The notes under the pieces: generated by a model
Databases searched by the model: none
Told to the model about the DNA's origin: nothing
What the model saw: the letters and a program-made list of their open reading frames with translations, nothing else
In this document: positions 16,644-41,666 of the stretch, piece by piece
Position numbering within the stretch: the stretch's first letter is position 1
How the letters are laid out: every line of letters begins with the position of its first letter
Made by a program: the position numbers and the translations under genes
DNA from: Kiritimatiellia bacterium
GTDB lineage: Bacteria > Verrucomicrobiota > Kiritimatiellia > CAIVKH01
NCBI GenBank assembly: GCA_035327665.1
Contig: DAOLCW010000002.1
Coordinates: 3,237-67,236 of the forward strand
DNA length: 64,000 nucleotides
Reading direction: 5' to 3'

Positions 16644-18449
16644 TCAACGGGGCGGCGGCTGATGGGCGAGGAGATCGTAAAGTTTGCGGTAATAGCCTCC
16701 GCGGGCCAGCAATTGAGGGTGGGAACCTTCCTCAACAAGTTCCCCATGGCGAAGGACGAGAATGCGGTCGACATCCCGGATGGTGGAAAGCCGGTGGGCG
16801 ATGATGATGCTGGTCCGTTCGTGAAGGATGCGATGGAGGGCGTCCTGGATCAGCAACTCGGTCTCGGTGTCGACATTGGCGGTGGCTTCATCGAGGATGA
16901 GGAGGATGTCCGGATCCTGGGCAATGGCCCGGGCCAAGGCGAGCAGTTGCTTTTGACCGGTGGACAAGCCGGCCCCTCGTTCGAGCACAGGGGCGTCGTA
17001 GCCGCCGGGACGGTTTTCGATAAAGGTATGAGCATTGACATACCGGGCCGCCTCCACCATTCGCTCGCGGGTCACTGCGGGATTAAACAGGGTGATGTTT
17101 TCACCGAGGGTGCCGGAAAAGATGAACGGATCCTGAAGCACGATTCCGATGTGGCGGCGCAGGTCAGACTGCCGGTAATCGCGTACGTCCCGGTCGTCCA
17201 CCCTCACCGAACCCTGTTGCACATCGTAGAAACGGGCGATGAGGCTGATGATGGTGGACTTGCCTGAACCGGTTGCTCCCACAATGGCGATCGACTGACC
17301 GGGCTCGATGGTGAAGGAAACGTCGTTGAGCACCCAGTGCTCGTGGTTGTAGGCAAAGCGAACGCGGTCGAATTCCACCTTTCCCTTGAAGCGGTCAAGA
17401 GGAGCAGGGGCAGCGGGGTCGTGAAGGAATTCCGGTTCGTCAATGAGGCCGAACACCCGCTCCGAGGAGGCCATCGCGGCCTGAAGGACATTTGATTTTT
17501 CCGACAAATCTTCAAGGGGTCGGAAGAAGTCGCGCAGGTAGGCAAGGTAAGCGATAAGTACGCCGATGGTGATGCCATGCTCGCCGGTAAGCAGGGCGTG
17601 TCCGCCCACAAGCAGGATAAAGGAAAGGGTCAGAGCATTCTGAATTTCCGTCACCGGGAAGGACAGGCTGAACCATTTGACGCTGTAGAGGTTGGCGTCG
17701 CGCAAGCGCTGGTTGAAGCCGTTGAAGCCGCGCCGGGTGGTTTCCTCGCGATTGAACAATTGGATGGTGGTCATTCCGGTCAACATTTCCTGTAAATAGG
17801 AATTGAGGGCGGATTGGCGCTTTCGCACCTCGCGATGAGCTTGCCGGACCTTGACGTTCAGATACACGAGGGAGATGAAGAGGAGGGGCAGCAGCACAAG
17901 AAGAATCGAGGCGAGCCGGGGACTCAGGTAGATCATGTAACCGATAATGCCGAGGATGGTGAACACGTCGACAATCAGCCCGACGAGCCCGTCGGTGAGG
18001 AGCCGCTGCATGGCATCGACATCCGAGCCGACCCGGGTCATGAGGCGTCCCACCGGATTGCGGTCGAAGTAGCGAAGAGGGAGCCGCATAATCTTGGCGT
18101 AGATATCGGCGCGGAGGTCGAACAGGATCTTCTGTCCGATCCACGACATCACGTAGCCCTGAGCGTATCTCAAGAAGACCACCACACCGGCAATGGAAAG
18201 GAAGATCCAGGCAATAGAGGTCAATTCGGCGATGCGGGTTGCCGCGTCGAGTCCGGTGGCGACAAGGGCATCGTCGATCGCCCGCTTGATGAGCAGGGGC
18301 AGGAAGTTCATCAGCAGGGTGAGGGGAAGCGTAAGGACGAGGGCGAGAAGCATGTACCCCCGGTAGGGGTAGGCATAGACGATCAACCGCCGGAGCAGGC
18401 GCTTGTCGAAAAGGCGACTGGGCATGTCCGACTCGAGGTGCTCGTTCAT
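16644..18449 (-). CDS. ABC exporter ATP-binding/permease subunit (type I exporter fold, 6 TM + NBD); non-canonical LSTGQ signature
   Basis: Walker A GATGSGKST, signature LSTGQKQ, Walker B ILLILDEATANVD, H-loop IIAHRLST. Confidence 0.85.
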   Translation of the reverse strand: MNEHLESDMPSRLFDKRLLRRLIVYAYPYRGYMLLALVLTLPLTLLMNFLPLLIKRAIDDALVATGLDAATRIAELTSIAWIFLSIAGVVVFLRYAQGYVMSWIGQKILFDLRADIYAKIMRLPLRYFDRNPVGRLMTRVGSDVDAMQRLLTDGLVGLIVDVFTILGIIGYMIYLSPRLASILLVLLPLLFISLVYLNVKVRQAHREVRKRQSALNSYLQEMLTGMTTIQLFNREETTRRGFNGFNQRLRDANLYSVKWFSLSFPVTEIQNALTLSFILLVGGHALLTGEHGITIGVLIAYLAYLRDFFRPLEDLSEKSNVLQAAMASSERVFGLIDEPEFLHDPAAPAPLDRFKGKVEFDRVRFAYNHEHWVLNDVSFTIEPGQSIAIVGATGSGKSTIISLIARFYDVQQGSVRVDDRDVRDYRQSDLRRHIGIVLQDPFIFSGTLGENITLFNPAVTRERMVEAARYVNAHTFIENRPGGYDAPVLERGAGLSTGQKQLLALARAIAQDPDILLILDEATANVDTETELLIQDALHRILHERTSIIIAHRLSTIRDVDRILVLRHGELVEEGSHPQLLARGGYYRKLYDLLAHQPPPR

Positions 18450-20248
18450 GAAGCTCCCTCCTCAAGCCGGGCTTCCAATCGCTGGGTCTCGTCGAGATCG
18501 GCGTAATAACCTCCCCGTGCGACAAGCTCTTCATGGGAACCTTCTTCGATCATGGCGCCTTCGTCGAGGACCAGAATGCGGTCGGCATGTCGGAGGGTGG
18601 AGACGCGATGGCTGATGAGGATGGACGTACGCGGACCGAGCACAGGAAGCAGTTGCTCAAGGATCCGGGCCTCGGTGTGCGTATCCACTGCGGAGAAGAC
18701 ATCGTCGAGGATGAGGATCCGGGGATCGAGGGCGAGGGCACGGCTGATTGCCGTGCGTTGGCGCTGACCGCCGGAGAGGGTCACCCCACGCTCGCCAAGC
18801 ATGGTCTGAAATTGGTTGGGAAAGCCCTCCACTTCGTCCCGTAAATGGGCGATGCATGCCGCCCACAGGACCTTTTCCTCGTGAGGCGAAGAACTTGCGG
18901 GGGGTGACGTTTCGGCGGCGGGCAGGCCAAGGGAGATGTTGTTGGCGAGGGTATCTGAGAACAAAAAGGTTTCCTGGGGAGCGACGCCCAGAGACGCCCG
19001 CAACACCTTGAGAGGGATGTGGCGAAGGTCGATTCCGCCGAGGGTAATCCGTCCCTCGGTGGGATCGATCAGGCGTTGAATCAAGGAAACGAGGAGGGTT
19101 TTCCCACCGCCGGTAGGGCCGGTGATGGCGAGGGTCTGGCCTTCGGGAATCACAAGGTTGATGTTGTGGAGGAGACGGGTGCCCCCCAGGGTAAGGGAGA
19201 CGTCCTCGAACCGGATGTCGCCTTGAATCGTGGTAAGATCATGCCGGGTGTGAGGGCCGTCGGCGATATCCGGAACCGCACCAAGGATGGTCTGGACCCG
19301 CTTCCAGCTCGCGAGGCCGCGTTGGATCAGGTTTGAAGTCCAGCCGAGGGCGAGCATCGGCCATTGCAGGTAAAGAAGATATTGGTTGAACTGGACAAAC
19401 TCGCCCAGGCTCATCTGGCCCTCAATGACCAGGCGGCCACCGACCAGCAGCAGGAGCAGGGTTCCCATGCCGAACATGAAGATCATAAACGGCCACACCG
19501 GCTCTTCCGCCCGGGTGAGGGACATATTGCGGCGGATGTATTCCTCGTTCTGCTCACGGAATCGGCCCCGCATGCGTTCCTCGATCCCGAAACCTTTGAT
19601 GGTACGGAAGCCGGCAAAGGATTCCTGGCAAAAGTTTGAGATGGTGGAAAATTGCTCCTGGCTGATGTCATAGCGGCGACGGATCACCCGGATGATGAAG
19701 AAGAACACGATGCTGATGACCGGTATGATGAGCATGATGGTCAGGGCAAGCTTAACGTTGAGGGCAAACATGATCCCGAAGGCAAAGGGAAAGCCGAGGG
19801 CAATACGGGACCCTTGGAGCAGGCCCTGACCGACCAGTTCGCGGATCGCTCCGAGGTCGGAGGACATTTTGGTCATAATGTCGCCGGTCCGCTCGCGCTG
19901 GAAAAAGGCAAAATCCAGGCGGGTCAGGGCATTGAAGACATCTTTTCGAATGTCGTATTCCACATGCTGGGCAACCCCGAGAAGGATCTTTCGCATGAGT
20001 ACGGAAAAGAACACGGCCGCTGCAGAGGCAGCAAAAAACATGGCCACAAGCTGGTGGAGTTTGCGGGCGGTAAACTCGCCGGATTCAATGCCGTCGATGA
20101 TATTCCGGAGAATGAATGGAACGATCAGGCCAAGCGCGATGGCGCCAACTACACTCAGAAATCCGAGGGTAGCCCGGGTTCGATAGGGCGCAACATAATC
20201 CTTTAAAGGTTTGGCGGGGGGTGGCATGGACGGCATACCTTGCACCAT
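18446..20248 (-). CDS. ABC exporter ATP-binding/permease subunit, partner of the preceding gene; Walker-B Glu replaced by Asp
   Basis: Walker A GPTGGGKTL, signature LSGGQRQR, Walker B ILILDDVFSAVD, H-loop LISHRVST; ATGA overlap with downstream partner. Confidence 0.85.
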   Translation of the reverse strand: MVQGMPSMPPPAKPLKDYVAPYRTRATLGFLSVVGAIALGLIVPFILRNIIDGIESGEFTARKLHQLVAMFFAASAAAVFFSVLMRKILLGVAQHVEYDIRKDVFNALTRLDFAFFQRERTGDIMTKMSSDLGAIRELVGQGLLQGSRIALGFPFAFGIMFALNVKLALTIMLIIPVISIVFFFIIRVIRRRYDISQEQFSTISNFCQESFAGFRTIKGFGIEERMRGRFREQNEEYIRRNMSLTRAEEPVWPFMIFMFGMGTLLLLLVGGRLVIEGQMSLGEFVQFNQYLLYLQWPMLALGWTSNLIQRGLASWKRVQTILGAVPDIADGPHTRHDLTTIQGDIRFEDVSLTLGGTRLLHNINLVIPEGQTLAITGPTGGGKTLLVSLIQRLIDPTEGRITLGGIDLRHIPLKVLRASLGVAPQETFLFSDTLANNISLGLPAAETSPPASSSPHEEKVLWAACIAHLRDEVEGFPNQFQTMLGERGVTLSGGQRQRTAISRALALDPRILILDDVFSAVDTHTEARILEQLLPVLGPRTSILISHRVSTLRHADRILVLDEGAMIEEGSHEELVARGGYYADLDETQRLEARLEEGAS

Positions 20249-20340
20249 ACGGGAGGAATCCGCAACCCGGGCGATGAACCTTCAACCAGAGCTTGCGGCC
20301 TCGAATTGCCAAGTTGCGGGGGGTGGCGTAGGTTTTAGTT

Positions 20341-21156
20341 ATGAGTCTTCGTGTAGTTTTGGTCATTCTGTTTATCGTATCCAGCGCCCGGTCCCGGGTG
20401 ATGGGGGAGGAGGCGTCGTCCCTTTGGTTTCCAGTAGGGGAAGTACTGGAATATACGGTGAGGTGGGGAGTCTTTTCGGTCGGGCAGGGGGTGGTAACAT
20501 CTGAATGGACGGAGGATGAGCAAGGTCGCCGACTGATCCGGATTCAATTCGACACGCGAAGCAACCGGGTTATTGCCATGTTGTATCCGGTGAAGGATTT
20601 GCAATGGGTGTTGATCGATCCCGGGACGTTTTTACCCGTCGAGGTTTACAAGGATTCCCGCCAGGGACGGTTCAAAGCTCATGAGCGGATTACCTTCGAC
20701 CATGCCCGGGGGCTTGCCCGCCATGAGTCCTTTATTGAAAAAAACGTGCGCGAAGTCCCGATCGATCCCGAGACGCGGGATCTCGTTACCTACATGTACT
20801 GGACGCGCTCGCAACCCCTTGCCCCCGGGGACCATCTAAGCTCCAGGGTCTATGCGGACGACGGGGTCCACGATTTGTCGATTGCGGTGACTGCTCGCGA
20901 AGACATCGAGTTGGATGGCCTGGGCAAAGTCGTGCCGAGCTTGAAATTTGAGCCGGAAGCGGACTTCGAGGGGCTGTTTGTGCGGCGGGACAAGATGCTG
21001 ATCTGGGTGTCTGACGATGAGCGGCGGGTCTGCACGCGCATCGCGACCAAGGTCCCGGTCGGAAGCGTGGTGATTGAATTGGTTGCGGTGTCCGGACCCG
21101 GTGACGACGGCTGGGTGCAGGAATCCGTTCGTTTGGAAGATGCGGTTCCACGTTGA
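20341..21156 (+). CDS. secreted DUF3108-like protein (tentative)
   Basis: signal peptide MSLRVVLVILFIVSSA; GEVLEYTVRWGVFSVGQG pattern recalled for DUF3108; first gene of 3-gene operon. Confidence 0.4.
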   Translation: MSLRVVLVILFIVSSARSRVMGEEASSLWFPVGEVLEYTVRWGVFSVGQGVVTSEWTEDEQGRRLIRIQFDTRSNRVIAMLYPVKDLQWVLIDPGTFLPVEVYKDSRQGRFKAHERITFDHARGLARHESFIEKNVREVPIDPETRDLVTYMYWTRSQPLAPGDHLSSRVYADDGVHDLSIAVTAREDIELDGLGKVVPSLKFEPEADFEGLFVRRDKMLIWVSDDERRVCTRIATKVPVGSVVIELVAVSGPGDDGWVQESVRLEDAVPR

Positions 21157-22367
21157 GGAATTACCGCTGGATACCAACCCGGGAGGCAGGACTCAGGGCG
21201 CTTTCCGAATTCCTGCCTCGAGCCGGGCGCGACTACGCGAGGGATCGAAATACCGACTACGGTCCATCCGACCGCAGGAACGTGTCCTGCCTTTCACCAT
21301 GGATACGATGCCGGGCGATCACGGAAGAAGAGGTGATTCGGGCAACGCTGGCCCGGCATGACTTCGCCGCCGCTGAAGCTTTTGCGCAGGAGGTCTGCTG
21401 GAGAACCTACTGGAAGGGCTGGCTGGAAATGCGTCCGGCGGTTTGGACACGATATGAATCCGCCGTGAGGGAAAGCGCGGGGCGACGGGAGTCGTGTCCA
21501 CGGTATCGTGAGGCCGTCGAAGGGCGCACCGGCATCCCCTGCTTTGATGCGTTCGTCATCGAGCTCAGGGAAACCGGCTACCTTCATAATCATGCCCGGA
21601 TGTGGTTTGCCAGTATCTGGATCTTTACCCTCGACCTGCGGTGGGAATGGGGGGCCGATTTTTTTCTCCGCCATCTTCTCGACGGCGATCCGGCCTCCAA
21701 CACCCTGAGCTGGCGATGGGTTGGAGGATTGCAAACGTCCGGAAAATTTTATGCGGCCACTCCAGACAACATCCGCCGGTTCACGTCCGGGCGGTTCCCC
21801 CATCCGGGGGAGTTGAAGATCCCCTCCGGCCCATTGGTTGAGATCGATTCTCTGCCCACCCCCCGCAACTTGCCGGCCCGCGGTCTAGAACCGCCACGGG
21901 AACCGGTCGGGGCGTTGCTTACCGAGGACGACGTCTCGGGGTGGCGGTGGATTGCCGGGTTGTATCCCGTCTGTGCTCTCGCCGGGTTGGTCCCTCGCGA
22001 GGCGTATCAGCGCCGCAAGGTGGAGGCGAAGGTCCTATCGTTCCGGGAAGCGTTGATGGGCGATGCTCTGAATTCGGGAATGGCTGAAGGACTTGCCTCC
22101 CATTTCCTTGACGTAGGGGATCCCGATGCCGCGGTGGAATGGGCCATGGGCGCGAAACTTAAAACGGTGGTGATGATTGAACCTGCGGTCGGTTACTGGG
22201 ACCGGATCAAGCCTGATCTGCAAAACGGCCTTGCCGCCGCCGGGATCGAACTCGTTTGGCTAAGGCGGCCATGGGATGATCAGTTGCATCCCCATGCGAC
22301 CGCCGGATTTTTCCGGTTCAAGAAGCGCCTGCCCGGACTTGCCGAAACGATCATGGGAAGGCCATAA
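21153..22367 (+). CDS. cryptochrome/photolyase FAD-binding-domain protein lacking the canonical N-terminal alpha/beta domain, with ~170-aa C-terminal extension
   Basis: LSPWIRCRAI (cf. LSPYLHFG), LHNHARMWFASIWIFTLDLRWEWGADFFLRHLLDGDPASNTLSWRWVGG (cf. MHNRxRMxxASFLxKxLxIDWRxGxxxFxxxLxDxDxAxNxxxWQWxAG). Confidence 0.6.
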   Translation: MRNYRWIPTREAGLRALSEFLPRAGRDYARDRNTDYGPSDRRNVSCLSPWIRCRAITEEEVIRATLARHDFAAAEAFAQEVCWRTYWKGWLEMRPAVWTRYESAVRESAGRRESCPRYREAVEGRTGIPCFDAFVIELRETGYLHNHARMWFASIWIFTLDLRWEWGADFFLRHLLDGDPASNTLSWRWVGGLQTSGKFYAATPDNIRRFTSGRFPHPGELKIPSGPLVEIDSLPTPRNLPARGLEPPREPVGALLTEDDVSGWRWIAGLYPVCALAGLVPREAYQRRKVEAKVLSFREALMGDALNSGMAEGLASHFLDVGDPDAAVEWAMGAKLKTVVMIEPAVGYWDRIKPDLQNGLAAAGIELVWLRRPWDDQLHPHATAGFFRFKKRLPGLAETIMGRP

Positions 22368-22375
22368 TCGACCTT

Positions 22376-23494
22376 ATGAGCGCGCGATTCCGTTTCCGAT
22401 GGCTCTTGATCGCCGGGGGATTCCCCCTGTTTCTTCAGGGTCAGATTGTTCCCGGACCCTGCAAGGAATGGCAGATGCCGTCGGGGGCGAGGATCCTAAC
22501 CTGCGTTCCCGCATCGGGCTGGAATGGGGATCTGATCGTTTTTGCCCGAGGGTATACGGCCTTCACGGAGCCTCTGGATTTTCAAAATCTTGAGATCGGC
22601 GGCATCTATCTGCCGGAAGTGGCCCAACGGCTCGGATTCGCGTTCGCCACCTCGACGTACCGGACAAATGGTCTCGCCGTCCTTTCCGGATTGGAAGACT
22701 TGCGCCAGGCAACCTTGGCGTTTCCGTGGGTTACCGGAAAGAAACCGCGACGAACCTTTATCGTTGGCGTTTCAGAGGGAGGGCTGATTGCTGTGCTCGC
22801 CTTGGAACGGTATCCCGAACTGTTCGCGGGTGGGTATTCGCTGTGTGGTCCGATCGGAAACTTTCAACGGCAGGCCCAGTCCTTCGCCAACTTCCGTGTG
22901 TTGTTCGATGTGTACTTCCCTGACTTACTACCCGGAGGGGCCACTGATGTTCCGAATGAACTTATTGCATCCTGGTCGAGCCTTTACCGTCCCTTGATTG
23001 AGTCCGCAGTGCTCAACAACCTCAACCAAGCGGAGGAACTCCTGCAGGTCAGTGGTGTTGCCTATGTGCCCGGGGATCCGGCCACCCTGGTAGGTTCGGT
23101 GACCGGGATGTTGTGGTACCACACGTTTGGGACTGCAAATGCCCAACAGGTGTTGCGCGGCAATCCTTTCGGAAATGAAACCCGCATCTATCGAGGTTCC
23201 TCGGATGATGCAGCATTGAATGCTGCGGTGGAGCGCGTTCGTGCTGATCCCATCACCGCTAGTAGCCTGCGACCCTATGAAACGACTGGCAAGCTCCGTC
23301 GGCCCTTGGTCGCTTTGCATACTACCGGAGATGAAATTGTGCCGTTCTGGCATCAGCGAGCCTATTTCGCGAAGACCCGGAGGGAGGGAAGCGAGATCTG
23401 GAGTTTTCCAATTGATCGTTACGGTCACTGCCAGTTCGAGTTCGGCGAGTTGATCGGCGGATTGTTCTGGATGCTTGTCCTTGCCGGTCGATAG
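22376..23494 (+). CDS. secreted alpha/beta-hydrolase-fold protein
   Basis: signal peptide; nucleophile elbow GVSEGG (GxSxG); 372 aa. Confidence 0.5.
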   Translation: MSARFRFRWLLIAGGFPLFLQGQIVPGPCKEWQMPSGARILTCVPASGWNGDLIVFARGYTAFTEPLDFQNLEIGGIYLPEVAQRLGFAFATSTYRTNGLAVLSGLEDLRQATLAFPWVTGKKPRRTFIVGVSEGGLIAVLALERYPELFAGGYSLCGPIGNFQRQAQSFANFRVLFDVYFPDLLPGGATDVPNELIASWSSLYRPLIESAVLNNLNQAEELLQVSGVAYVPGDPATLVGSVTGMLWYHTFGTANAQQVLRGNPFGNETRIYRGSSDDAALNAAVERVRADPITASSLRPYETTGKLRRPLVALHTTGDEIVPFWHQRAYFAKTRREGSEIWSFPIDRYGHCQFEFGELIGGLFWMLVLAGR

Positions 23495-23500
23495 CCGGAA

Positions 23501-24199
23501 TCAGCCACCCCGATGTCCACGCACCAACGCATAGAACCGGTCCTCATACTCCTTGAAGAGTTGAGTGCGCTGAAGAAGCGTGGCAAGCGGACTGACCTGA
23601 TTGGAATCCTTTGCGGCACGATGGAAGGCGGTTTCGATTTCCTGACGATGGCCTAGGGGATCACGCTTGAGCGCATCCGCGTGGGAGAGGGCGGACTGCT
23701 GAACGACCTCGGAAAGCAGACGGAGCAGGCAGACTTGCCAGGGTTCGTCCACTCCGCGAATCAAGGCGGTCATGGGGGCATCCTTCGCCTTCAATTCCCC
23801 GGCAATGCGCTCGACCACGGTGTCGAGCGCGTCAGTCACCAGATGCTCATTGACCGTCTCCATCCGGATACGAAACCCGTATTTTAGGAGAACCAAGTCC
23901 TCTTGATGTTGACGGAGCCACTGCAAATACCTTTCCGCTTCCGCCTCTTGAAATCCTTCAAGTATCGCTCCGGCAAGATCTTCGGGTGTCAGGATTGCGG
24001 GTCGGAACGCAGTAATCTTGCCTTCGCGGATGCGGATGCGCTGAACATCATCCATCAGCTCGGACACCAGTGTGTACTCGATGGTGGTTGAGCCGAAGGT
24101 TTCCAGGATCTTCCGGGGTTTGACCACCACTTCGGAATGGTTGATCGCGTACCAAAAATCGAATGACGGGTCGGATGACATGGGGCGAGAACCTATCAC
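23501..24199 (-). CDS. hypothetical protein
   Basis: 232-aa ORF, genome-typical codon usage, no recognisable motif. Confidence 0.4.
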   Translation of the reverse strand: MIGSRPMSSDPSFDFWYAINHSEVVVKPRKILETFGSTTIEYTLVSELMDDVQRIRIREGKITAFRPAILTPEDLAGAILEGFQEAEAERYLQWLRQHQEDLVLLKYGFRIRMETVNEHLVTDALDTVVERIAGELKAKDAPMTALIRGVDEPWQVCLLRLLSEVVQQSALSHADALKRDPLGHRQEIETAFHRAAKDSNQVSPLATLLQRTQLFKEYEDRFYALVRGHRGG

Positions 24200-24362
24200 A
24201 GGTCGTGGGCATGTAAAGCCATTGGTGAAGGGAAGATGAGGGATTCCCGTAGCCCGGGATCAGGGGTAGTTCAGGGTGGGGTTGGTGGTTGACGTTAAAG
24301 GGGTCATCCGCTACATGTATGCGCTTAACTTTTTCGGGACAACCCTGCTTCCCCGGATTTAA

Positions 24363-25394
<1,032 letters not shown>

Positions 25395-27577: not shown

Positions 27578-28018
27578 ATGATGGGTTTTATTACAACATT
27601 GCTTATTTTGGTGGAAATCTTGACCGCATTGCTCTTGATTGCCGTGATTCTCATGCAGCAATCGAAAGGGCAGGGCGGACTGGGCACTGCGTTTGGAGGC
27701 GGCGGCATGGGGGAGTCGATGTTCGGATCCCGGGCCGGCAACGTCCTGACCAAGACCACGGTGGTCCTCGCCGCAGTCTTCCTGCTCAACACCATGTTCC
27801 TCGCAGTATCCTTTGCCCGCAAGCATGATGACTCGATCATCGATGAGCGCAGCATGAGCATGCCGGCACCTCCGATGGGTGCTCCCCCGGCCAGGATGAT
27901 GACGGAAGCGCCCGCCGCTCCCGCCCCGGTCGCTGCGGATCCCGGCATGATCGCTGTCGAGGATGTCGCCCCGTTTGAAATGGGCGACTCCGAGCCGGTC
28001 ATGTTGATTGAGGAATAA
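27578..28018 (+). CDS. secG: preprotein translocase subunit SecG (with extended acidic/Pro-rich C-terminus)
   Basis: LMQQSKGQGGLGTAFGGGG...GSRAGNVLTKTT two-TM SecG signature. Confidence 0.8.
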   Translation: MMGFITTLLILVEILTALLLIAVILMQQSKGQGGLGTAFGGGGMGESMFGSRAGNVLTKTTVVLAAVFLLNTMFLAVSFARKHDDSIIDERSMSMPAPPMGAPPARMMTEAPAAPAPVAADPGMIAVEDVAPFEMGDSEPVMLIEE

Positions 28019-29813
28019 AAAGGTCCCGGTTGACGCCATGCGGAAGGGCGTCACACCCATGTTGCCTGATCAAAGGGGAAGGGCCTGCTCTTTTCAGTGC
28101 ATCCGATTGACCCTTCTGGGGGGAAGCCTTGCGCTTGGATTGCTCGCATCCGCTTGCTCCTCCCGGGAGACGACTTCTGCTGGAAACCGGGATGATGCCC
28201 TTCATCTTGTCACCCAGCGTATTCGTGGTTTTGACCCGGCCCGGGCCGCCGATGTCTCTAGCTCAATGGCCATCGCCCGCATTTACGAAACCCTGGTAGA
28301 ATACGATTACCATGAACGGCCCTACCGGCTCCAACCTCTACTAGCGGAAAAGATGCCCGAGGTCAGCGAGGACGGTTTGACCTATCGCTTCCGGCTTCGT
28401 TCCGGCATCTTCTTTTCCGATGATCCCTGTTTCGCGGAAACCGGGGGAGAAGGCCGGGAACTCGTCGCCGGGGATGTCGTCTATTCCATCAAGCGCATCG
28501 CCGACCGGAAGAATGCTTCCACCGGTTGGTGGGCGTTTCGAAGTCGAATTGCCGGACTCGACGCGTTCCGTGAGGCCTCCGAGGGCGACGGCCCGACCGA
28601 CTATGACCTCGAGGTGGAAGGGTTGCGAGCGCTCGACCGCTACACCGTGGAAATCACCCTCGTCAAGCCGTACCCGCAGTTGATGTGGATTCTCGCCATG
28701 ACCTATGCAGCGGTGGTTCCGAGGGAGGCGGTAGAGCATTATGGAGCGGCCTTCAATCATCGTCCGGTAGGAACCGGACCGTTCCGTCTCGCATCATGGC
28801 GGAGAAACTACCGTCTTGAATACCATCGCAATCCCGCGTGGGAGCGCAGCGGACGGGAACCCGTTGGATTGAACCGGATGGTCGATTTGGTAGTGGCGGA
28901 TCCCGCGACCCGGTGGATGATGTTCCTAAACCGGCAGTTGCACCTCACGGGAGTGACCCGCGATCAGTGGGAGTCCGTGGTTCGGCCCGACTTCAGTCTT
29001 GCCCCCTCGTTTGTTGAACGAGGCATCCGGCTGGAAGTCAACCCGAGCCTGCGCATCAACTACATCGCGTTTAACATGGATGACCCGGTGGTCGGCCCCA
29101 ACCGGGCTCTGCGCCAAGCCATGACCTCGGCGTTCAACACTGCCGAATGGCTGACCCTTCACAACCATGCCGTGGTCCGCCCGCCCGGTCCAATTCCCGC
29201 CGGCCTCGCCGGCTACGATCCCGAGGCCGAACGTTTTCCGTTTGACCTCGATCGGGCAAGGGAATGGCTTGCCGAAGCTGGGTATCCCGGGGGACGCGAT
29301 CCACAGACCGGTCGCCGCTTGAGTCTTACCCTCGAGTTCGGCCGGGCCGATGATCAGGAACTGCGACAGGCGGCAGAGCTTATCCAGCAGTTCATGGCCC
29401 GGATCGGCATCGAATTGAATCTGGTGTTCCAGCATGGCCCCGCGTTTTTCGAGCGTCTGGAGCGCCGCCAGGCCCAGATGTTCTACCTCGGCTGGATCGG
29501 GGATTACCCCGACGCGGAGAACTTTCTTCAATTGTTCTACGGGCCGAATGTCTCACCCGGCTCCAACCGCTGCAACTACCGCAACGAGGACTACGACCGC
29601 CTGTTCGAGCAAGCCCGGATCTTGCCCGACGGGCCGGAACGTACCGAGTTGTATCGTCGCCTCGCGGCGATCATTATCGAGGACAGCCCGTGGATTCTCG
29701 CCAGCCAACCCATGGATGTGGTGCTTGTTCAGGGTGTTGAGGGATATCGGTCCCACTCATTTCCGTATGGTATGGAAAAACATCTTCGCCTAAGCGGGGG
29801 AGGGGACCGATGA
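28008..29813 (+). CDS. ABC transporter substrate-binding protein, family 5 (peptide/opine/nickel type); alternative start 28059
   Basis: N-terminal signal with ...LLASAC; SBP_bac_5-like size (~600 aa) and motifs; followed by two cognate permeases. Confidence 0.8.
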   Translation: MRNKKVPVDAMRKGVTPMLPDQRGRACSFQCIRLTLLGGSLALGLLASACSSRETTSAGNRDDALHLVTQRIRGFDPARAADVSSSMAIARIYETLVEYDYHERPYRLQPLLAEKMPEVSEDGLTYRFRLRSGIFFSDDPCFAETGGEGRELVAGDVVYSIKRIADRKNASTGWWAFRSRIAGLDAFREASEGDGPTDYDLEVEGLRALDRYTVEITLVKPYPQLMWILAMTYAAVVPREAVEHYGAAFNHRPVGTGPFRLASWRRNYRLEYHRNPAWERSGREPVGLNRMVDLVVADPATRWMMFLNRQLHLTGVTRDQWESVVRPDFSLAPSFVERGIRLEVNPSLRINYIAFNMDDPVVGPNRALRQAMTSAFNTAEWLTLHNHAVVRPPGPIPAGLAGYDPEAERFPFDLDRAREWLAEAGYPGGRDPQTGRRLSLTLEFGRADDQELRQAAELIQQFMARIGIELNLVFQHGPAFFERLERRQAQMFYLGWIGDYPDAENFLQLFYGPNVSPGSNRCNYRNEDYDRLFEQARILPDGPERTELYRRLAAIIIEDSPWILASQPMDVVLVQGVEGYRSHSFPYGMEKHLRLSGGGDR

Positions 29814-31108
29814 CTCGCTTTCTGTTGCGCCGTTTCCTCCACATGATCCCCACCGTGGGCGGGGTGTTGCTCATCACGTTTATCCTTTTTAATCTCGTCG
29901 GGGGTAGTCCGGCCCTTATGACCCTCGGCGACAAGGCCACTCCGTTGCAACTGGAGGAATTCGATGAGGTGCGAGGCTTCAACCGACCCTTGTTGTTTGG
30001 CTGGCGGGGACCTACCCGGGCTCTCCCGTTTACTGACTTCACCCAAAGCCTCGGCCCCTGGAGTGCATGGCCGGAGGCCACCCTCGATTCTCGGGGATTC
30101 CTGAGTCTGCCCGGTCCGGCTACCGTCGAGCTGCCACTTGCCTTTTTACTCTTCCCGAACGCAACGTACGAACTCAAGGTGCGCTATCGTTCCGATCAGC
30201 CGGTGAAGGTACACCACGCGATGCTGCCCGCAGCGTCGGATTGGCAAGTTCAAACCCTGAGGATTGAGGCTGGGGATACGGCGGATGAGCGCCGCATCCG
30301 CATGAAGGTCGAAGGAACGCGATTCGAATTGGCCGAAGTGGACTTGTTTCGACGAATGGACTCCCCCTGGCATTCCCAGTTCACCTATTACCTTCGCCAT
30401 CTTGCCCGGCTGGACTTTGGAGTATCCCACAGCGCGAACGAGCCGGTGATCGATCTCTTGAAATCGGGGATTGTCCCGACCCTGCTTCTCGCCACCCCGA
30501 TCCTCTTCGGCGAACTCCTGATCAGTGTGGTGTTCGCCCTGATCTGCGCCCGCTATCGCAACCGGTGGCCGGATCGCCTTCTTCTCGTCCTCAGCGTGGC
30601 CCTGATGAGCGTAAACTATCTGGTTTGGATTGTCGCCGGCCAGTACCTGCTCGCCTTCAAGCTCGGATGGTTCCCGGTGTGGGGATTCGAGTCATGGCAC
30701 TACCTTTTACTCCCCGTGCTGATCGGAACGCTCCATGGACTTGGCAGCAACATCCGTTTCTACCGCACGGTTATGCTCGATGAGATGTACAAGGATTATG
30801 TTCGTACCGCATTCGCCAAGGGGGCCGGAGAGGCCCGGGTCCTGTTCCGGCACGTCCTTCCCAATGCCATGATTCCCGTAATCACCAACGTGGTTCTCTC
30901 GCTGCCCTTCCTCTATACGGGAAGTCTTCTTCTCGAAAGTTTCTTTGGCATTCCCGGACTGGGCTACCTCAGCGTGAACGCGATTCACTCTTCGGATGTG
31001 GACGTGGTTCGGGCAGTGGTTCTTATCGGTTCGGTGTTGTATGTGGTTGCGAACCTCATCGCCGACCTGCTTTATGCATGGGTCGACCCGAGGGTGAGGT
31101 TGTCATGA
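29810..31108 (+). CDS. ABC transporter permease (DppB/OppB-like) with ~190-aa periplasmic insertion between TM1 and TM2
   Basis: EAA-loop region ...YVRTAFAKGAGEARVLFRHVLPNAMIPV; 432 aa. Confidence 0.8.
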   Translation: MTRFLLRRFLHMIPTVGGVLLITFILFNLVGGSPALMTLGDKATPLQLEEFDEVRGFNRPLLFGWRGPTRALPFTDFTQSLGPWSAWPEATLDSRGFLSLPGPATVELPLAFLLFPNATYELKVRYRSDQPVKVHHAMLPAASDWQVQTLRIEAGDTADERRIRMKVEGTRFELAEVDLFRRMDSPWHSQFTYYLRHLARLDFGVSHSANEPVIDLLKSGIVPTLLLATPILFGELLISVVFALICARYRNRWPDRLLLVLSVALMSVNYLVWIVAGQYLLAFKLGWFPVWGFESWHYLLLPVLIGTLHGLGSNIRFYRTVMLDEMYKDYVRTAFAKGAGEARVLFRHVLPNAMIPVITNVVLSLPFLYTGSLLLESFFGIPGLGYLSVNAIHSSDVDVVRAVVLIGSVLYVVANLIADLLYAWVDPRVRLS

Positions 31109-31998
31109 GCGCAAACGAGACATTGCCCGCTCGAAAAGGGGTGTGGTCGATCCTGTGGCGGGGCCGCTTGTCGCGAGTTTGCCTGCTCGTGGTCGGGTTC
31201 TACACGGTGGTCGCCCTTGCCGGGGAGTTCCATTGTGCATGGCACAAGATCCAGGACACCTTGCCGACCTACCAACGCCAGCAACTCGACCAGCGGTTTC
31301 AACCGCCCGGACCTGGCCACTGGCTCGGCACGGATGCCCTCGGCCGGGATGTCGGCTTGCGGTTGGTGCAAGGAACACGCATCGCCTTTCGGGTGGGAAT
31401 TATCACCTCGCTGATCGCCATTCCCATCGGCGTACTCCTCGGCTGCCTCGCCGGCTATTTCCGGGGCCGGGTCGACGATGTTATTGTCTGGCTCTACACC
31501 ACCTTTGCCTCCATTCCGGGGTTACTTTTCATTCTTGCCATCGCGATGGTGGTCGGCAAGGGCTTGCTCGGTATCTACCTGGGAATCGGCCTCACCACGT
31601 GGGTGGGGGTTTGCCGCTTGATCCGGGCTGAAGTGATGAAGCACCGCGACCGCCCTTACGTGCAAAGTGCCCGGGTGCTGGGCCTCGGCCATTTCCGTAT
31701 TCTCTTCCGGCATATCCTGCCCAATGTCAGCCATGTCATCATTGTCGCATTCACCCTGCGATTTCCGGCATCGATCGGAACCGAGGTCTTCATGAGCTTC
31801 CTCGGGATCGGCGTACAGGGTGAACCTTCCTGGGGAATCATGATCAACAACGCCCGCCTCCGTCTTTGGGAAGGGGTATGGTGGGAAATGACGTTTGTCA
31901 CCTTGGCGGTATTTTTTATTGTACTCGCCTTCAACCTCCTCGGCGATGCTCTCCGCGATGCCCTCGACCCCCGTCTCCAGGCGACAGAGGAAGGGTAA
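31105..31998 (+). CDS. ABC transporter permease (DppC/OppC-like)
   Basis: ATG 31105 overlaps upstream stop; ...YVQSARVLGLGHFRILFRHILPNV EAA motif. Confidence 0.8.
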   Translation: MSANETLPARKGVWSILWRGRLSRVCLLVVGFYTVVALAGEFHCAWHKIQDTLPTYQRQQLDQRFQPPGPGHWLGTDALGRDVGLRLVQGTRIAFRVGIITSLIAIPIGVLLGCLAGYFRGRVDDVIVWLYTTFASIPGLLFILAIAMVVGKGLLGIYLGIGLTTWVGVCRLIRAEVMKHRDRPYVQSARVLGLGHFRILFRHILPNVSHVIIVAFTLRFPASIGTEVFMSFLGIGVQGEPSWGIMINNARLRLWEGVWWEMTFVTLAVFFIVLAFNLLGDALRDALDPRLQATEEG

Positions 31999-32106
31999 CA
32001 ACCATCATCCAAACGGGGCTCACCGGAACATTTCGCCCGACCACGCATGTCCATGTCAGGTAGGGCGAGGCGTCCCGCCGAGCCGCGGCCGGTATTGGAC
32101 TAACGT

Positions 32107-33141
32107 TCAGCTCGAGATTGTCGTGGCTTTCTCGAACAGGTAGTGGGCCACAAACCATTCCTCCCCGTTGTGGTAACCAAACAGCTCGGCGCAGGCCATG
32201 AAGAACACCCGCCAATACACTCTCCAGGTTGCGGCCTCGGCTCCATAGGCATCACGAAGGACCGGCATGACCTCGTCATTGCGGGCGTCCATGCGTTTGA
32301 GCCATTCATTCAGGGTACGCTCGTAATGGCGCCCATTGACTCGCCACTGGTGGGCAATCCGGAGATGTTCACCAAAGTGTTGGTAGAGGTTTTCCGAAGG
32401 CATGATCCCACCGCTGAAGAAGTAGCGGGCCATCCAGTCGTCCTTCTCCCCGGTGGTAAAGAAATAGGGGCGGCTGGCATGGCAAAAGATGTGGACGAAT
32501 AATTTTCCGTCCGGCTTCAGCCAGCCGGCGATGCGTTTCAGGAGTTCCTGGTAATTCTGCATGTGTTCGAACATCTCAACGGAAACCACGCGGTCGAACG
32601 AGCGGCCAATGTTGAAGTCATTCATGTCGGCAGTAATCACGGTCAGGTTGGTCAGACCCCGCCGCCGGGCTTGGTCGTCGATATAGTCTTTTTGGGTAGA
32701 GGAATTGGAGACGGAGGTTATCGTGGCTTCGGGAAAGGTTTCCGCCATGTAGAGGGAGAGGGAACCCCAGCCGCATCCCAGCTCGAGGATCTGTTGCCCC
32801 CCCGCAAGTTCGGCCCGCTCGCAGGTCAGAGCCAGCATGGCTGCTTCGGCTGCGTCGAGGTCGTCGACCCCTTCCGGCCAAAGGCATGAGCTGTATTTGA
32901 GATGCTTACCGAGAACGAGCCGGAAAAATTCGGTGGGAACTTCATAATGCTGCTCGTTCGCTTTTTCCGGCACGGCGGCCACCGGACAGGTCCGCAGGGT
33001 GTCGGCAAATGCCTTTTCAACTTGGGCCGCATCCCCTTTGGCTGCCTCTTCCTTGAGACGCTGGGCAAGCAAACGTCGAATGCCGGCACGAATCAACGGA
33101 TCGGGAAGCAGGTTCGCCTTGAGCAGGGGAAGGTACCACAT
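32107..33141 (-). CDS. cfa: cyclopropane-fatty-acyl-phospholipid synthase family SAM-dependent methyltransferase
   Basis: VLELGCGWGSLSLYMAE SAM-binding motif, CFA-synthase-like length and C-terminal region. Confidence 0.8.
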   Translation of the reverse strand: MWYLPLLKANLLPDPLIRAGIRRLLAQRLKEEAAKGDAAQVEKAFADTLRTCPVAAVPEKANEQHYEVPTEFFRLVLGKHLKYSSCLWPEGVDDLDAAEAAMLALTCERAELAGGQQILELGCGWGSLSLYMAETFPEATITSVSNSSTQKDYIDDQARRRGLTNLTVITADMNDFNIGRSFDRVVSVEMFEHMQNYQELLKRIAGWLKPDGKLFVHIFCHASRPYFFTTGEKDDWMARYFFSGGIMPSENLYQHFGEHLRIAHQWRVNGRHYERTLNEWLKRMDARNDEVMPVLRDAYGAEAATWRVYWRVFFMACAELFGYHNGEEWFVAHYLFEKATTISS

Positions 33142-33144
33142 ACA

Positions 33145-33930
33145 TCAGCCTTTCTTGGGAAACCAGGGCACGAAGGCGCTGGTGGATTGTTGGTAGCTCC
33201 GGTACGCCTCGCCTTTGCTGCGTAGCGCTTGGGCTTCGGTGGCGGGAATTCCGGTTACTTTGAACAAAAAATAAAGCATGAGGGCGGGGCATAGCCAGGC
33301 CAGATACCCATGAGGAGCGGGTGTCGCGGCAAGGGCCACGGCCACCCAGATGCACCACTCGAAGAAGTAATTGGGATGCCGGGAGTACTTCCATAATCCC
33401 ACGGCGCACACCTTGCCACGGTGAGCAGGGTTGGCCTTGAAGGCTGCCAGTTGAGCGTCGGCGGCCGCTTCCCCGATCCATGCTCCAACAAATAAAACCG
33501 CGGCGAACAACTCCAACGGGTGAAGGATCGTACTGACGTTGTGGAAAACAAGCAGGTAAGGCCCAGCGAACAACAACGCGGCTACCGCTTGGAATTGAAA
33601 GAACCAGAAAAAATTTCGCTGGGCGTGTTCACCCCACGATTCCCGTAGTGTCCGGTAGCGTCGATCTTCAACCTCGCCATGGGAACGCCGGTGAATGTGT
33701 ACAACCAGGCGCCCTCCCCAGAGAAACGCCAATGCCGTGAACAACAAGGCCCGTGGCCATGGGGCAGGGGAGGCGAGGCCAAATCCCGCGACGAGAAGGG
33801 GAATCGAACCCGACCAGCCGACATCGACAATCCCTGCATTGTGGGTGCGTCGTTGCTGCCACCACAAACCTGTCATGAACAGGGTGACAAACAGGAAACC
33901 ATATCCGAGAAAAGGCAGCAGATGAATCAT
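33145..33930 (-). CDS. DUF1295 / steroid-5-alpha-reductase-like membrane protein (start at MIHLLPFLGYG)
   Basis: GLWKYSRHPNYFFEW motif; frequently co-operonic with cfa. Confidence 0.6.
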   Translation of the reverse strand: MIHLLPFLGYGFLFVTLFMTGLWWQQRRTHNAGIVDVGWSGSIPLLVAGFGLASPAPWPRALLFTALAFLWGGRLVVHIHRRSHGEVEDRRYRTLRESWGEHAQRNFFWFFQFQAVAALLFAGPYLLVFHNVSTILHPLELFAAVLFVGAWIGEAAADAQLAAFKANPAHRGKVCAVGLWKYSRHPNYFFEWCIWVAVALAATPAPHGYLAWLCPALMLYFLFKVTGIPATEAQALRSKGEAYRSYQQSTSAFVPWFPKKG

Positions 33931-34454
33931 GGGATGGACGTTGATGCAGGTAGAACCGCGCGTTGAAGGTGCATCCTCCGGATCACCGGATAGAGAAGTG
34001 CCGCGAGTAGAAGCGTACCCGGAATCGCGAAGGTTGCCCACGCGACGGATGCAAAGACAATCGCATGGCCAAATTCTGCCAAGGTACCCAAAAAGTCAGC
34101 GGAAAATTTATCGGCGAGTTCAGTCGGGGCAAGCGGGATGGGGTCGCTGCCAAACCACCGGGAGCCCAAGGTGACAAAAGGGATGATCAGTAGAAGTTGA
34201 GCGGGGTAAACCAGCCAGTTGGTGAGTTGAATGGCCACCGGGTTCAGGCGCAATCCAAGCGAAACAACCAGACAGAGCATGGTGGTGGTACCAATGACGG
34301 GAAAGATGCCAATCATCGCCCCCGCGGCAAGGCTTATGGAAAGGGGAGCCGGGGCAATCCCTTGCCGGATCAATCCAGCCACGGGGCTGATCACCGTGCG
34401 GCGAAGCCAAGAATTCGAACCAGGTAATGAAGTTGGGGCAAGGGATTCGTTCAT
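33927..34454 (-). CDS. DUF2062-like membrane protein (start trimmed to MNESLAPTSL)
   Basis: small polytopic membrane protein, ATGA overlap with downstream DUF1295 gene. Confidence 0.4.
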   Translation of the reverse strand: MNESLAPTSLPGSNSWLRRTVISPVAGLIRQGIAPAPLSISLAAGAMIGIFPVIGTTTMLCLVVSLGLRLNPVAIQLTNWLVYPAQLLLIIPFVTLGSRWFGSDPIPLAPTELADKFSADFLGTLAEFGHAIVFASVAWATFAIPGTLLLAALLYPVIRRMHLQRAVLPASTSIP

Positions 34455-34577
34455 AAAAATAGTCAATGGAACCACACCATCATACCGCAACCCGAGAAAA
34501 AGACAAATTCCAGCCGTTGACTTTCCTGGTCCCCCTCCGATAGGATGCTTAGCTAATTTATTTCCGGAGCTATTGAC

Positions 34578-35282
34578 GTGACGATGATTGACCAACTACT
34601 CGAATTGCAGGACTACGACCGCCGCATCCGTCAGTTCACTCGGGAGTCCAAGGACATACCCGCCCGCAAGGCCATGGTGGAAAGTCGTTTGCAACAGCAT
34701 CGGGACAGTCTCGAACAGTCCCGGGAAGCCCTGAAAAAAACGTTGTCGGCAACCAAACAGGTCGAATTGGACATTGAAGCCCGACAAGACAAGATCCGCA
34801 AGTACCTTGAGCAGCAAAACAAGGTCAAGAACAACGAGGAATACCGGGCTCTCGAGACTGAAATCAAGGGCTTGCGCAAACAAGTCAAGGAATTGGAAGA
34901 GAAAGAAATTTCCTTTATGGAGCAGGCCGAAGCCGACAAGGCCCGGAGTGCGGACCTCGAGGGCTCGCTGGCTGGTGAGGAACAAACGGTCGCTGGGGAT
35001 ACCGGCATGCTCGACGAACGACTGGTCCGTATCCAGGAAGAATTGGCCAAGGTCACCGAAATGCGCAATGCCAAGGCAAAAGAGATCGATCCGATCTGGC
35101 TTTCGCGTTATGACCGGATCTTCAAGAATAGGGGCGATTTCGCGATTGTTCCCGTGGACAACGGAACAACGTGCGGGGGGTGCCGCCTCAAACTTCCGCC
35201 CCAGGTGGTCCAAGACGTCAAGCGTGGTGATACCATGGCGTCCTGCCCGCACTGCGGTCGGCTCTTGTATTGGCCGGGCTAA
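34578..35282 (+). CDS. zinc-ribbon coiled-coil protein (COG1579 family)
   Basis: long coiled-coil then C-terminal CGGCRLKLPPQ...CPHCGRLL C4 zinc ribbon. Confidence 0.6.
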   Translation: MTMIDQLLELQDYDRRIRQFTRESKDIPARKAMVESRLQQHRDSLEQSREALKKTLSATKQVELDIEARQDKIRKYLEQQNKVKNNEEYRALETEIKGLRKQVKELEEKEISFMEQAEADKARSADLEGSLAGEEQTVAGDTGMLDERLVRIQEELAKVTEMRNAKAKEIDPIWLSRYDRIFKNRGDFAIVPVDNGTTCGGCRLKLPPQVVQDVKRGDTMASCPHCGRLLYWPG

Positions 35283-35300
35283 TCGCGTAGGTTGTCTTTC

Positions 35301-35714
35301 GAGCGGGTGGGCGGATGATCGCTCTGCGGTTGGAAACAACGCGCGGGGAGGAAAGTCCGGACTCCACAGGGCAGGATGTCCCCTGGGCCGTTTTAGACGG
35401 GGCGGGGAGAGTTCCGGGCAAACCGGGATGACGGAAAGTGCCACAGAAAACAGACCGCCCCGAAGCAGTCCGAAAGGCGGTTTCGGGGTAAGGGTGAAAA
35501 GGCGGTGTAAGAGACCACCGGGCGGTTTCGCGAGAAACCCCGCAGGGTAAACCCCATCCGGAGCAAGATCAAATAGGGAACGGGAGGCGGCCCGCCTCAC
35601 TTCCACGCGAGTGGAAAACGTTCCGGGTTGATCGCGCATGCCGACATCGGCGAGATAAATGATCATCGTCCCGTTTCGGCGGGAAACAAAATCCGGCTTA
35701 CAACCCACCCGCTC
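35301..35714 (+). ncRNA. rnpB: RNase P RNA, bacterial type A
   Basis: GGAGGAAAGTCCGGACTCCACAGGGCAGG (P4 5' strand), GTGCCACAGAAAACAGACCGCC, AAATAGGGAACGG, ACAAAATCCGGCTTACAA (P4 3' strand); P1 helix GAGCGGGTGGG/CCCACCCGCTC at termini. Confidence 0.85.
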
Positions 35715-35736
35715 ACTTCTTTGATCGGATTGTCGC

Positions 35737-36678
35737 TTGATGACCCGGCACGTCAGGCTTAGGATGCGTCCCATGTTGACATCGTCGCAATGGATGCAGG
35801 CGGGTCGAGTCGCGGCTTTGGTCTTGTGGTTTTTAGCCGGGATGTTGGCCGTGTGGTATGGATGGCGCTGGCTGGGTCCGGACCCGGGCCAACTTCCGGT
35901 GTCCAAACCCCGGGACATTCCCGGTCAGGATGCAAGCGTGCGTTTCGATGCGCGGTCCTGGGAGGTATTTCAACGTACCGACCGGACGGAAGAGCCTCAG
36001 GATCCCGCCGCCAATCGCTACCGGTTGGCAGGAACGTTCTTTATTCAATCCGAGGACGCCAATGTCATTCCGCAGCGAAGCGCTATTCTTGATGATCTCG
36101 GCGAGCAGCGCCAATACCTCGTCCGCGAGGGCGATCGGGTTGCTACCCTCGAAATTATTCGAATTTATGCGGATCGTTTAATTGCCCGTTCACAAGGACG
36201 GGATATCGAGATCCGGCTCGGCTTTACCGAACCGATTGCGCGGGCTACCGCCACGACGGAAGCATCGGACGAACGATTTACCCAGCACGGGGAACGCATC
36301 CTCTCCGAAACGAAGTTCGGACAGCAGATCGCCGAAACCCGTTGGGTGATGAGCCGGGACGCCTTGATGGGCTATTATCGGGCGGTCCTCGACCAGCCGG
36401 AGCGGGTGGCCTCTCTTTACATGTCGATGAAAGGGGTTCGCGATGAAGAAGGGGAGCCCGACGGATTTCGATTGGAACCGGTGGGGGAGCGGGAGTTTTT
36501 CGAGGCGGTCGGCTTGCGTGAAGGGGATGTCATCCGGGCCGTGAACTCGATGCGGATGACCAGCCAGCCCCGGGCCGAATACTTCCTCAGCGAATTTGTT
36601 CACGAGCGGCTCAATGCGGTGGTGATCGATGTCGACCGAGCCGGCGAATTGACTCAACTCATTTATCTCTTGCGCTGA
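35737..36678 (+). CDS. hypothetical membrane-anchored protein (possibly GspC/PilP-like; start uncertain)
   Basis: single N-terminal TM (VAALVLWFLAGMLAVWYGW) then soluble domain; no firm motif. Confidence 0.4.
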   Translation: MMTRHVRLRMRPMLTSSQWMQAGRVAALVLWFLAGMLAVWYGWRWLGPDPGQLPVSKPRDIPGQDASVRFDARSWEVFQRTDRTEEPQDPAANRYRLAGTFFIQSEDANVIPQRSAILDDLGEQRQYLVREGDRVATLEIIRIYADRLIARSQGRDIEIRLGFTEPIARATATTEASDERFTQHGERILSETKFGQQIAETRWVMSRDALMGYYRAVLDQPERVASLYMSMKGVRDEEGEPDGFRLEPVGEREFFEAVGLREGDVIRAVNSMRMTSQPRAEYFLSEFVHERLNAVVIDVDRAGELTQLIYLLR

Positions 36679-38906: not shown

Positions 38907-38944
38907 GGGTGTAGCGTTCAGTATGGCATGACGGGACAACAATC

Positions 38945-40411: not shown

Positions 40412-40490
40412 GAGACGGGCGTAGTAGCGAATTCATGCCACAATCCGGGGGAACCCCAAGGAATAGATTGCCAAACCATTCATTTGTAGA

Positions 40491-40506
40491 CATAATATAT
40501 ATTATG
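40491..40506. repeat. perfect 16-bp AT-only palindrome CATAATATATATTATG in convergent glgA/lepB intergenic region
   Basis: seen directly; striking AT island in GC-rich DNA. Confidence 0.5.
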
Positions 40507-40559
40507 CGACGTTGTATAAGGGGGTTGCTTCGGATGTTTTTCCGATGATTCCTGCTAGG

Positions 40560-41660: not shown

Positions 41661-41666
41661 CGGAGA

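Follow-up and report, generated by a model that had tools for sequence, protein, structure and literature searches.

Known short photolyases and the present locus

The closest described relatives of the protein analysed here are short photolyases with an inverted domain order, in which the catalytic FAD-binding domain comes first and is followed by a Z-domain of about 150 residues. Exactly this architecture was described in Emmerich et al. 2020 study under the name NewPHL (PMC7736829), and in Xu et al. 2021 study the class was independently named "short photolyase-like" (SPL) and stated to be the same as NewPHL (PMC8476157). The characterised NewPHL proteins, both from alphaproteobacterial hosts, are DsNewPHL of Dinoroseobacter shibae (UniProt A8LJA9) and MmNewPHL of Methylobacterium mesophilicum (M7YZC8), for which FAD binding and CPD repair specific for single-stranded DNA (ssDNA) are reported from experiments (PMC7736829); FAD binding and CPD repair were also reported for RfSPL of Rhodococcus fascians (PMC8476157). 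RfSPL, which belongs to subgroup Ac, has a [4Fe-4S] cluster with four cysteines, as does subgroup C of the cyanobacteria. The view preferred in both founding papers is that the NewPHL/SPL class is the minimal ancestor of the photolyase family (PMC7736829, PMC8476157).

Two further groups serve as references. Among solved structures, the catalytic half of the present protein is closest to the class I CPD photolyases (E. coli PhrB, 1DNP; S. elongatus, 1TEZ/1OWL), with 26% identity and a phmmer E of about 1e-16. These have the same FAD and CPD pockets, from which the same photochemistry would be expected, but differ from the present protein in their N-terminal antenna domain, their long inter-domain linker with its phosphate-binding loop, their full Trp triad, and their activity on double-stranded DNA, and they have about 55 more C-terminal helical residues. 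The Cry-DASH ssDNA photolyases share with the present protein the proposed niche of CPD repair limited to single-stranded DNA, but in them the domains follow the canonical order from N- to C-terminus and the antenna is MTHF.

The locus described here lies in a window of 64,000 nucleotides from a Kiritimatiellia MAG (PVC group). Its product is very probably a photolyase of the NewPHL/SPL class. The inverted or permuted architecture suggested in the original prediction is supported, with the FAD domain at the N-terminus and the Z-domain of an AlphaFold2 (AF2) model at the C-terminus; this domain order was already published in 2020–2021, and the gene adds a member to a described class. The features of the locus are as follows.

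20341..21156, + strand: DUF3108 gene, upstream, with a signal-peptide-like N-terminus (PF11306, E=5e-32; context only)
21153..22367, + strand: complete gene of the probable NewPHL/SPL-class photolyase, 404 codons and stop, TTG start (ORF list)
21153..21332, + strand: first 60 codons, left out of the public gene call (public product 344 aa, start V61)
21153..21782, + strand: N-terminal all-helical catalytic FAD-binding domain, residues 1–210 (PF03441, NCBIfam/PDB alignments, Foldseek, AF2 helices)
21390..21728, + strand: active-site stretch, residues 80–192 (mapped to E. coli PhrB and DsNewPHL residues, PMC7736829)
21783..21905, + strand: linker between the domains, non-regular, residues 211–251 (DSSP and pLDDT 85–95 of the AF2 model)
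21906..22364, + strand: C-terminal Z-domain, residues 252–404 (five parallel-type β-strands alternating with helices in the model, Rossmann/HUP-like)
22305..22313, + strand: GFF motif G385-F386-F387 (published NewPHL Z-domain hallmark, PMC7736829; family conservation)
22376..23494, + strand: alpha/beta-hydrolase-like gene, downstream, with a signal-peptide-like N-terminus (weak Peptidase_S9/Hydrolase_4 matches; context only)

Catalytic domain and active site

In a Pfam scan of the 404-aa protein, a check that had been proposed together with the original prediction, PF03441 (FAD_binding_7) was the sole domain, at residues 77–196 with E=1.8e-23 and 83.5 bits (cutoff 27), and PF00875 (photolyase N-terminal domain) had no match even at E≤1. 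The PF03441 match spans only positions 1–122 of the 203 of the profile, and the NCBIfam and PDB searches pair residues 8–191 with positions of about 206–394 in class I photolyases. The NCBIfam photolyase/cryptochrome models (471 aa) align residues 8–190 with positions of about 206–391, at 24–74 bits against cutoffs of 317–885, while phmmer against all PDB sequences gave the class I photolyases 1OWL/1TEZ as the best match (E=1.1e-16, residues 8–191 against chain positions 208–394) and no solved relative nearer than these. Taken as a whole, residues 1–210 correspond to residues of about 200–415 in class I photolyases. The strong FAD-binding homology noticed earlier in the sequence is confirmed in this way; the match starts earlier than the span given for it, residues 45–235 approximately, the alignments beginning at residue 8.

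Conservation was followed in 81 family sequences, which come from Alphaproteobacteria, Gammaproteobacteria, Microbacteriaceae, and Opitutales. By alignment with PhrB the predicted CPD-binding residues are E80, W83, N146, M150, and W189 (E. coli E274, W277, N341, M345, and W384), each of them present in all 81 sequences. The predicted FAD residues are R149, D177, S182, N183, and S186 (E. coli R344, D372, A377, N378, and G381), where R149, D177, and N183 are likewise found in 81 of 81. Two Trp residues predicted to transfer electrons, the proximal W187 and the medial W164, form a dyad that is complete throughout the set (both 81/81); the distal Trp of the triad (E. coli W306) is replaced by R112, and none of the 81 sequences has Trp at this position, while W98, which is not fully invariant among them, is a possible third Trp.

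In the FAD pocket S182 and S186 depart from the residues of class I enzymes, and RfSPL likewise has Ala/Gly there; this is an observation that speaks against the proposed explanation. In the family Ser predominates at each of the two positions (75/81 at S182; 68/81 at S186, the other 13 having Gly), and the swaps are conservative and family-typical.

Assignment to the class

The similarity to DsNewPHL extends to dimensions and spacing. DsNewPHL has 405 aa with the Z-domain at 256–405, against 404 aa and 252–404 in the present protein, where the catalytic FAD domain and the Z-domain follow in the same order. The DsNewPHL residues E81, W84, W99, N151, W169, W192, and W194 correspond to E80, W83, W98, N146, W164, W187, and W189, a comparison that, like that with RfSPL, is one of residue numbers printed in the papers and not of full-sequence identity. 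The spacings 3, 15, 18, 23, and 2 are identical, and the one change of offset (from −1 to −5) coincides with a 4-residue deletion in a variable loop near residue 115, as seen in the homolog alignment. In both proteins the Trp triad is replaced by a dyad, the Z-domain carries the GFF motif, and the Fe-S cysteines are lacking.

The Fe-S-containing subtype of SPL was considered and rejected. When the cysteine positions of RfSPL are located by the constant −25 offset of its mapped residues, C155, C239, C242, and C248 fall on C130, R214, H217, and I223, only the first of the four being Cys, and at the last three positions Cys occurs in 0 of 81 relatives. Because three of the four positions are R214, H217, and I223, no Fe-S cluster is expected, and judging by these residues the protein resembles the cluster-free type represented by the enzymes of D. 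shibae and M. mesophilicum.

Other members of the photolyase family were also tried as candidates. A canonical class I/III CPD photolyase is rejected by the lack of PF00875 and by scores far under the model cutoffs (TIGR03556, 74 bits against 885; NF007955, 60.5 against 506). A place among the DASH-like or NewCRY proteins of Emmerich et al. 2020 is rejected because the present protein keeps E80 and N146 and is without the N-terminal domain; its score with the Cry-DASH model TIGR02765 is 57.5 bits against a cutoff of 317.

Reading frame and extent of the family

The open reading frame is present as first claimed, with 404 aa and a TTG start, and the peptides quoted from it were found at residues 145–192 (HNHARMW...WRWVGG) and at about residues 336–393 (KTVVMIEP...FKKRL). 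The start (cacgTTGAgg) shares 4 bp with the stop codon of the upstream gene. A database entry of 100% identity is labelled [quoted passage not shown]. The first 60 codons, omitted from the public gene call, hold Y28, S45, L47, and S48, which stand in invariant alignment columns and align with Y222, S235, L237, and S238 of PhrB, in a conserved segment at the N-terminal side of its catalytic domain that binds the FAD phosphate, and residues 11–60 have pLDDT of 94–98 in the AF2 model. As these columns indicate, the public annotation of the locus begins 60 codons too late and cuts off invariant residues.

On the other side of the start codon, four in-frame stops occur in the 60 codons upstream, where the DNA is that of the DUF3108 gene. 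Because these stops and the DUF3108 gene fill the space, the N-terminal domain is truly missing, with neither a frameshift nor a mis-assembly behind its absence; together with the negative PF00875 scan this upholds the original statement that the canonical N-terminal α/β domain is lacking.

Relatives of the protein are numerous. At least 8000 scored database matches were obtained, all with E≤0.001; among the 120 matches listed the length is 378–451 aa, and almost all of them cover 94–100% of the query; for homologs of 385–430 aa the coverage is 97–100%. A relative is present in at least 598 species-representative genomes, and full-length relatives of 44–49% identity are found in Thalassobacter stenotrophicus and Ruegeria, both of them genera that Xu et al. 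list among the carriers of SPL (PMC8476157), in whose taxon list Kiritimatiellota and Verrucomicrobia are absent.

These data bear on the explanation that the gene is a truncated or rearranged remnant of a two-domain photolyase, either a pseudogene or an assembly artefact. It is suggested by the incomplete Pfam match with the missing N-terminal domain and by the public gene call, which is shorter still, but it is hard to reconcile with the abundance of significant relatives, nearly all of full length among those listed, with their distribution over so many species genomes, with the presence of the same gene on several independent contigs, and with invariant residues spread over the entire protein up to the C-terminus, which is modelled at high confidence as well. 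The remnant explanation is effectively refuted by this conservation.

Structure of the Z-domain

The AF2 model, built on a 47-sequence alignment, has a mean pLDDT of 93.8 and a pTM of 0.92, and therefore both domains and their packing are confidently modelled. Residues 10–210 are all helical in it, residues 211–251 form an ordered linker, and residues 252–404 are composed of strands and helices with pLDDT of about 90–98. When the whole model was compared by Foldseek with PDB, the matches were photolyases and cryptochromes only, over about 230 columns and with a query-normalised TM of about 0.4; the match was confined to the catalytic half, no solved structure with the whole architecture was returned, and the search of this PDB copy revealed no structure of a NewPHL protein.

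The Z-domain is conserved in all homologs, and several conserved positions characterise it, in agreement with the published hallmark of a GFF motif together with a conserved Trp. Within the GFF motif G385 and F387 are found in 81 of 81 sequences and F386 in 77, and by the alignment columns the motif is surrounded by the conserved D260, G347, W374/D375, P380, and A382. At W374 the 47 closest homologs all have Trp, and 77 of the 81 sequences overall have an aromatic residue; W330 occurs in 60 of 81. The positions counted as invariant, D260, G347, W374-D375, P380, and G385-F386-F387, lie at the C-terminal edge of the Z-domain sheet.

In Emmerich et al. study the PSIPRED prediction gave a Z-domain with three strands and an order of elements unlike the Rossmann fold, and the covariation remark in the same paper held that the first 125 residues resemble the antenna domain (PMC7736829). 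The present model indicates a five-stranded, photolyase-N-like Z-domain, against the secondary-structure reading of 2020 and in agreement with its covariation remark.

Despite this likeness at the level of fold, which is supported by the model, sequence profiles give no confirmation of homology. In hhalign the Z-domain profile and the photolyase N-domain profile were related with a probability of 4% (9% with a larger profile of 127 sequences), hmmsearch between them gave 0–2 bits in both directions, and the Z-domain profile had no matches at E≤10 among all PDB sequences. When 35 isolated Z-domains were scanned with Pfam, PF00875 was the top recurrent family, yet it appeared in only 2 of 35 with a best E of 0.0022, which is not significant. 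The original prediction had seen in the C-terminal LVWLRRPWDD a likeness to the photolyase motif LVWFRRDLR; this did not hold, as it is not significant by any profile method and concerns the wrong strand. LVWLRRPWDD lies on strand 5 of the Z-domain, whereas in PhrB the motif (LVWFRQDLR, residues 5–13) is on the first strand, and no method aligns the two.

Homology of the Z-domain to the photolyase N-domain is thus plausible and unproven. A more specific proposal makes the Z-domain and the N-terminal antenna (HUP/Rossmann-like) domain true homologs, with the NewPHL/SPL proteins being circularly permuted and C-terminally trimmed descendants of a two-domain photolyase; this can be put forward only tentatively, and its chances are judged to be slightly under even.

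Genomic neighbourhood

The three genes at the locus run in one direction, the photolyase gene overlapping its upstream neighbour by 4 bp and being followed after an 8-bp gap by the hydrolase gene, and because of this arrangement they are probably co-transcribed in the present genome. Of the neighbours named in the original prediction the DUF3108 gene is confirmed, while the matches of the downstream gene to alpha/beta hydrolase/S9 families are weak (E=4e-6). A promoter and terminator scan of positions 20000–24400 is uninformative on operon structure, because the sites were no more numerous than in shuffled sequence.

The probable co-transcription could be read as participation of the photolyase-like protein in a joint cell-envelope or lipid pathway with the secreted DUF3108 protein and the alpha/beta hydrolase, its flavin chemistry being unrelated to DNA. 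Such a pathway is very unlikely in view of the comparison with other genomes, in which neither neighbour accompanies the gene across 80 related loci, and around the two nearest homologs that were looked at (53–54% identity) the neighbours are quite different, namely SOUL-family and ATP-cone/PRK genes or unrelated genes. Moreover, as read from the sequences, the photolyase is without a signal peptide, whereas the N-termini of both neighbours are signal-peptide-like. A conserved operon with DUF3108 and hydrolase genes is rejected by the same comparison of loci, and the odd secreted-protein context of the photolyase gene is incidental.

Proposed function

The explanation preferred here, that the protein is a NewPHL/SPL-class photolyase without an Fe-S cluster which repairs CPDs in ssDNA, is considered likely as a whole, the ssDNA-repair function being graded by analogy somewhat below the class membership. 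The anatomy of the active site and the fold are established by the comparisons described above, and the steps of the mechanism are carried over from the characterised members. The protein would bind one FAD molecule without any antenna chromophore. Under blue or near-UV light FAD would be reduced to FADH- by way of W187 and W164 and perhaps further W98. A CPD would lie between W83 and W189, with hydrogen bonds to E80 and N146; the excited FADH- would pass an electron to it, after which the cyclobutane ring would split and the electron return to the flavin. Repair would be expected on single-stranded DNA only, since the protein lacks the last helices of the canonical enzymes and their phosphate-binding loop between the domains. 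In ordinary photolyases the pyrimidine edge of FAD is sealed by the N-terminal antenna domain; in the present protein the Z-domain is expected to pack on the catalytic domain and to seal this edge from solvent.

The main competing explanation is a bacterial cryptochrome-like photoreceptor, in which photoreduction of FAD alters the C-terminal domain and a signal is passed onward, the repair activity being vestigial. Such a function was speculated upon in Xu et al. study, where a regulatory role was raised, the C-terminal extensions were said to recall plant and animal cryptochromes, and RfSPL contributed little to photoreactivation in vivo (PMC8476157). In addition, in 8 of the 80 related loci the gene adjoins a two-domain family member without the repair residues, which has R at the position of E. 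coli E274 and F at that of N341 and is therefore a NewCRY-like putative photoreceptor; this residue mapping also rejects the view that these neighbours are canonical photolyases backing a repair role. Against a photoreceptor stand the five CPD-binding residues, which vary in none of the 81 sequences, as would hardly be expected if lesion binding were not under selection; the CPD repair in vitro by all three characterised members (PMC7736829, PMC8476157); and the Z-domain itself, which in the model is a compact, folded domain rather than a flexible tail. On balance the photoreceptor explanation is improbable, and repair of CPDs in ssDNA remains the preferred function.

As to the other repair genes, it is published that 94–96% of NewPHL/SPL carriers also have a class I/III CPD or (6-4) photolyase, and in Emmerich et al. 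study NewPHL and DASH are almost mutually exclusive across genomes (PMC7736829). A tblastn search of the 64-kb window found no second photolyase-family gene, class I or (6-4) included.

Implications

Kiritimatiellia are mostly anaerobes of dim habitats, and an ecological need for photorepair in them is not obvious. The class is now extended to Kiritimatiellota, a phylum not in the published taxon lists, and the family amounts to thousands of sequences, far above the roughly 200–600 analysed in the founding papers. The late-start error seen at this locus may recur widely in MAG annotations of NewPHL/SPL proteins. If the permutation reading of the Z-domain is true, D260, G347, W374-D375, P380, and G385-F386-F387 could mark the FAD-sealing interface or an undetected ligand or antenna site. 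Further, the photolyase-N-like model of the Z-domain bears on the debate whether the class is ancestral to photolyases and cryptochromes or is a permuted derivative of them.

Start codon of the NewPHL gene

In the public annotation the NewPHL gene encodes 344 aa and begins at V61, so that 60 codons are left out (window 21153-21332; compare 6001-7035 of L088, the public contig copy of the locus). The omitted codons include Y28, S45, L47 and S48, all of which are invariant in the family and align with Y222, S235, L237 and S238 of E. coli PhrB, respectively. The coverage by homologs, together with pLDDT values of 94–98 across the omitted N-terminal residues in the predicted structure, supports the longer TTG-initiated ORF.

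Genomic surroundings

Genes around the NewPHL unit in the window
16644-20248, minus strand: two neighbouring 600-aa half-transporter genes, each with ABC_membrane and ABC_tran, overlapping by 4 bp
23501-24199, minus strand: ORF of 232 aa that converges on the hydrolase gene; the public contig has it as a gene of 226 aa
24381-27534 and onward, plus strand: glycolytic cluster gap-pgk-tpiA, then secG, directly downstream

The ABC pair is of the heterodimeric exporter type and is divergent from the DUF3108-NewPHL-hydrolase unit. The 232-aa ORF had zero matches at E<=1 in Pfam and NCBIfam. The ordinary housekeeping context of gap-pgk-tpiA-secG points to the chromosome, and not a mobile element, as the site of the locus.

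The GC skew of the plus strand falls from +0.26 at the left end of the window to -0.34 at the right end (1-64000), changing sign around 28000-42000 with a cumulative maximum near 34-36 kb. It is not merely a coding-strand effect, since it stays positive over the minus-strand ABC transporter genes (16.6-20.2 kb), and a replication terminus may lie inside the window.

Partners of NewPHL genes in related loci

The translationally coupled partner differs between homologs, being the DUF3108 gene in the window but, for the homolog P0009, an upstream gene of the heme-binding SOUL family that overlaps the NewPHL gene by 4 bp (L082 5360-7185, L083 97-1922).

Eight of the 80 related loci have, within about 1 kb of the NewPHL gene, an ORF of the photolyase family with two domains and a length of about 500-520 aa.

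Two-domain photolyase-family ORFs near NewPHL genes (locus, coordinates)
L016, 6319-7689
L019, 6353-7735
L022, 6282-7634
L031, 6418-7797
L037, 3644-4990
L049, 5676-7085
L071, 9500-10879
L075, 161-1552

At the positions of E. coli E274, N341, M345 and N378 all eight carry R, F, A and H, respectively, which is the signature of NewCRY, the repair-deficient class of Emmerich 2020 (PMC7736829). These residue patterns suggest that a NewPHL-NewCRY gene pair recurs in Alphaproteobacteria.
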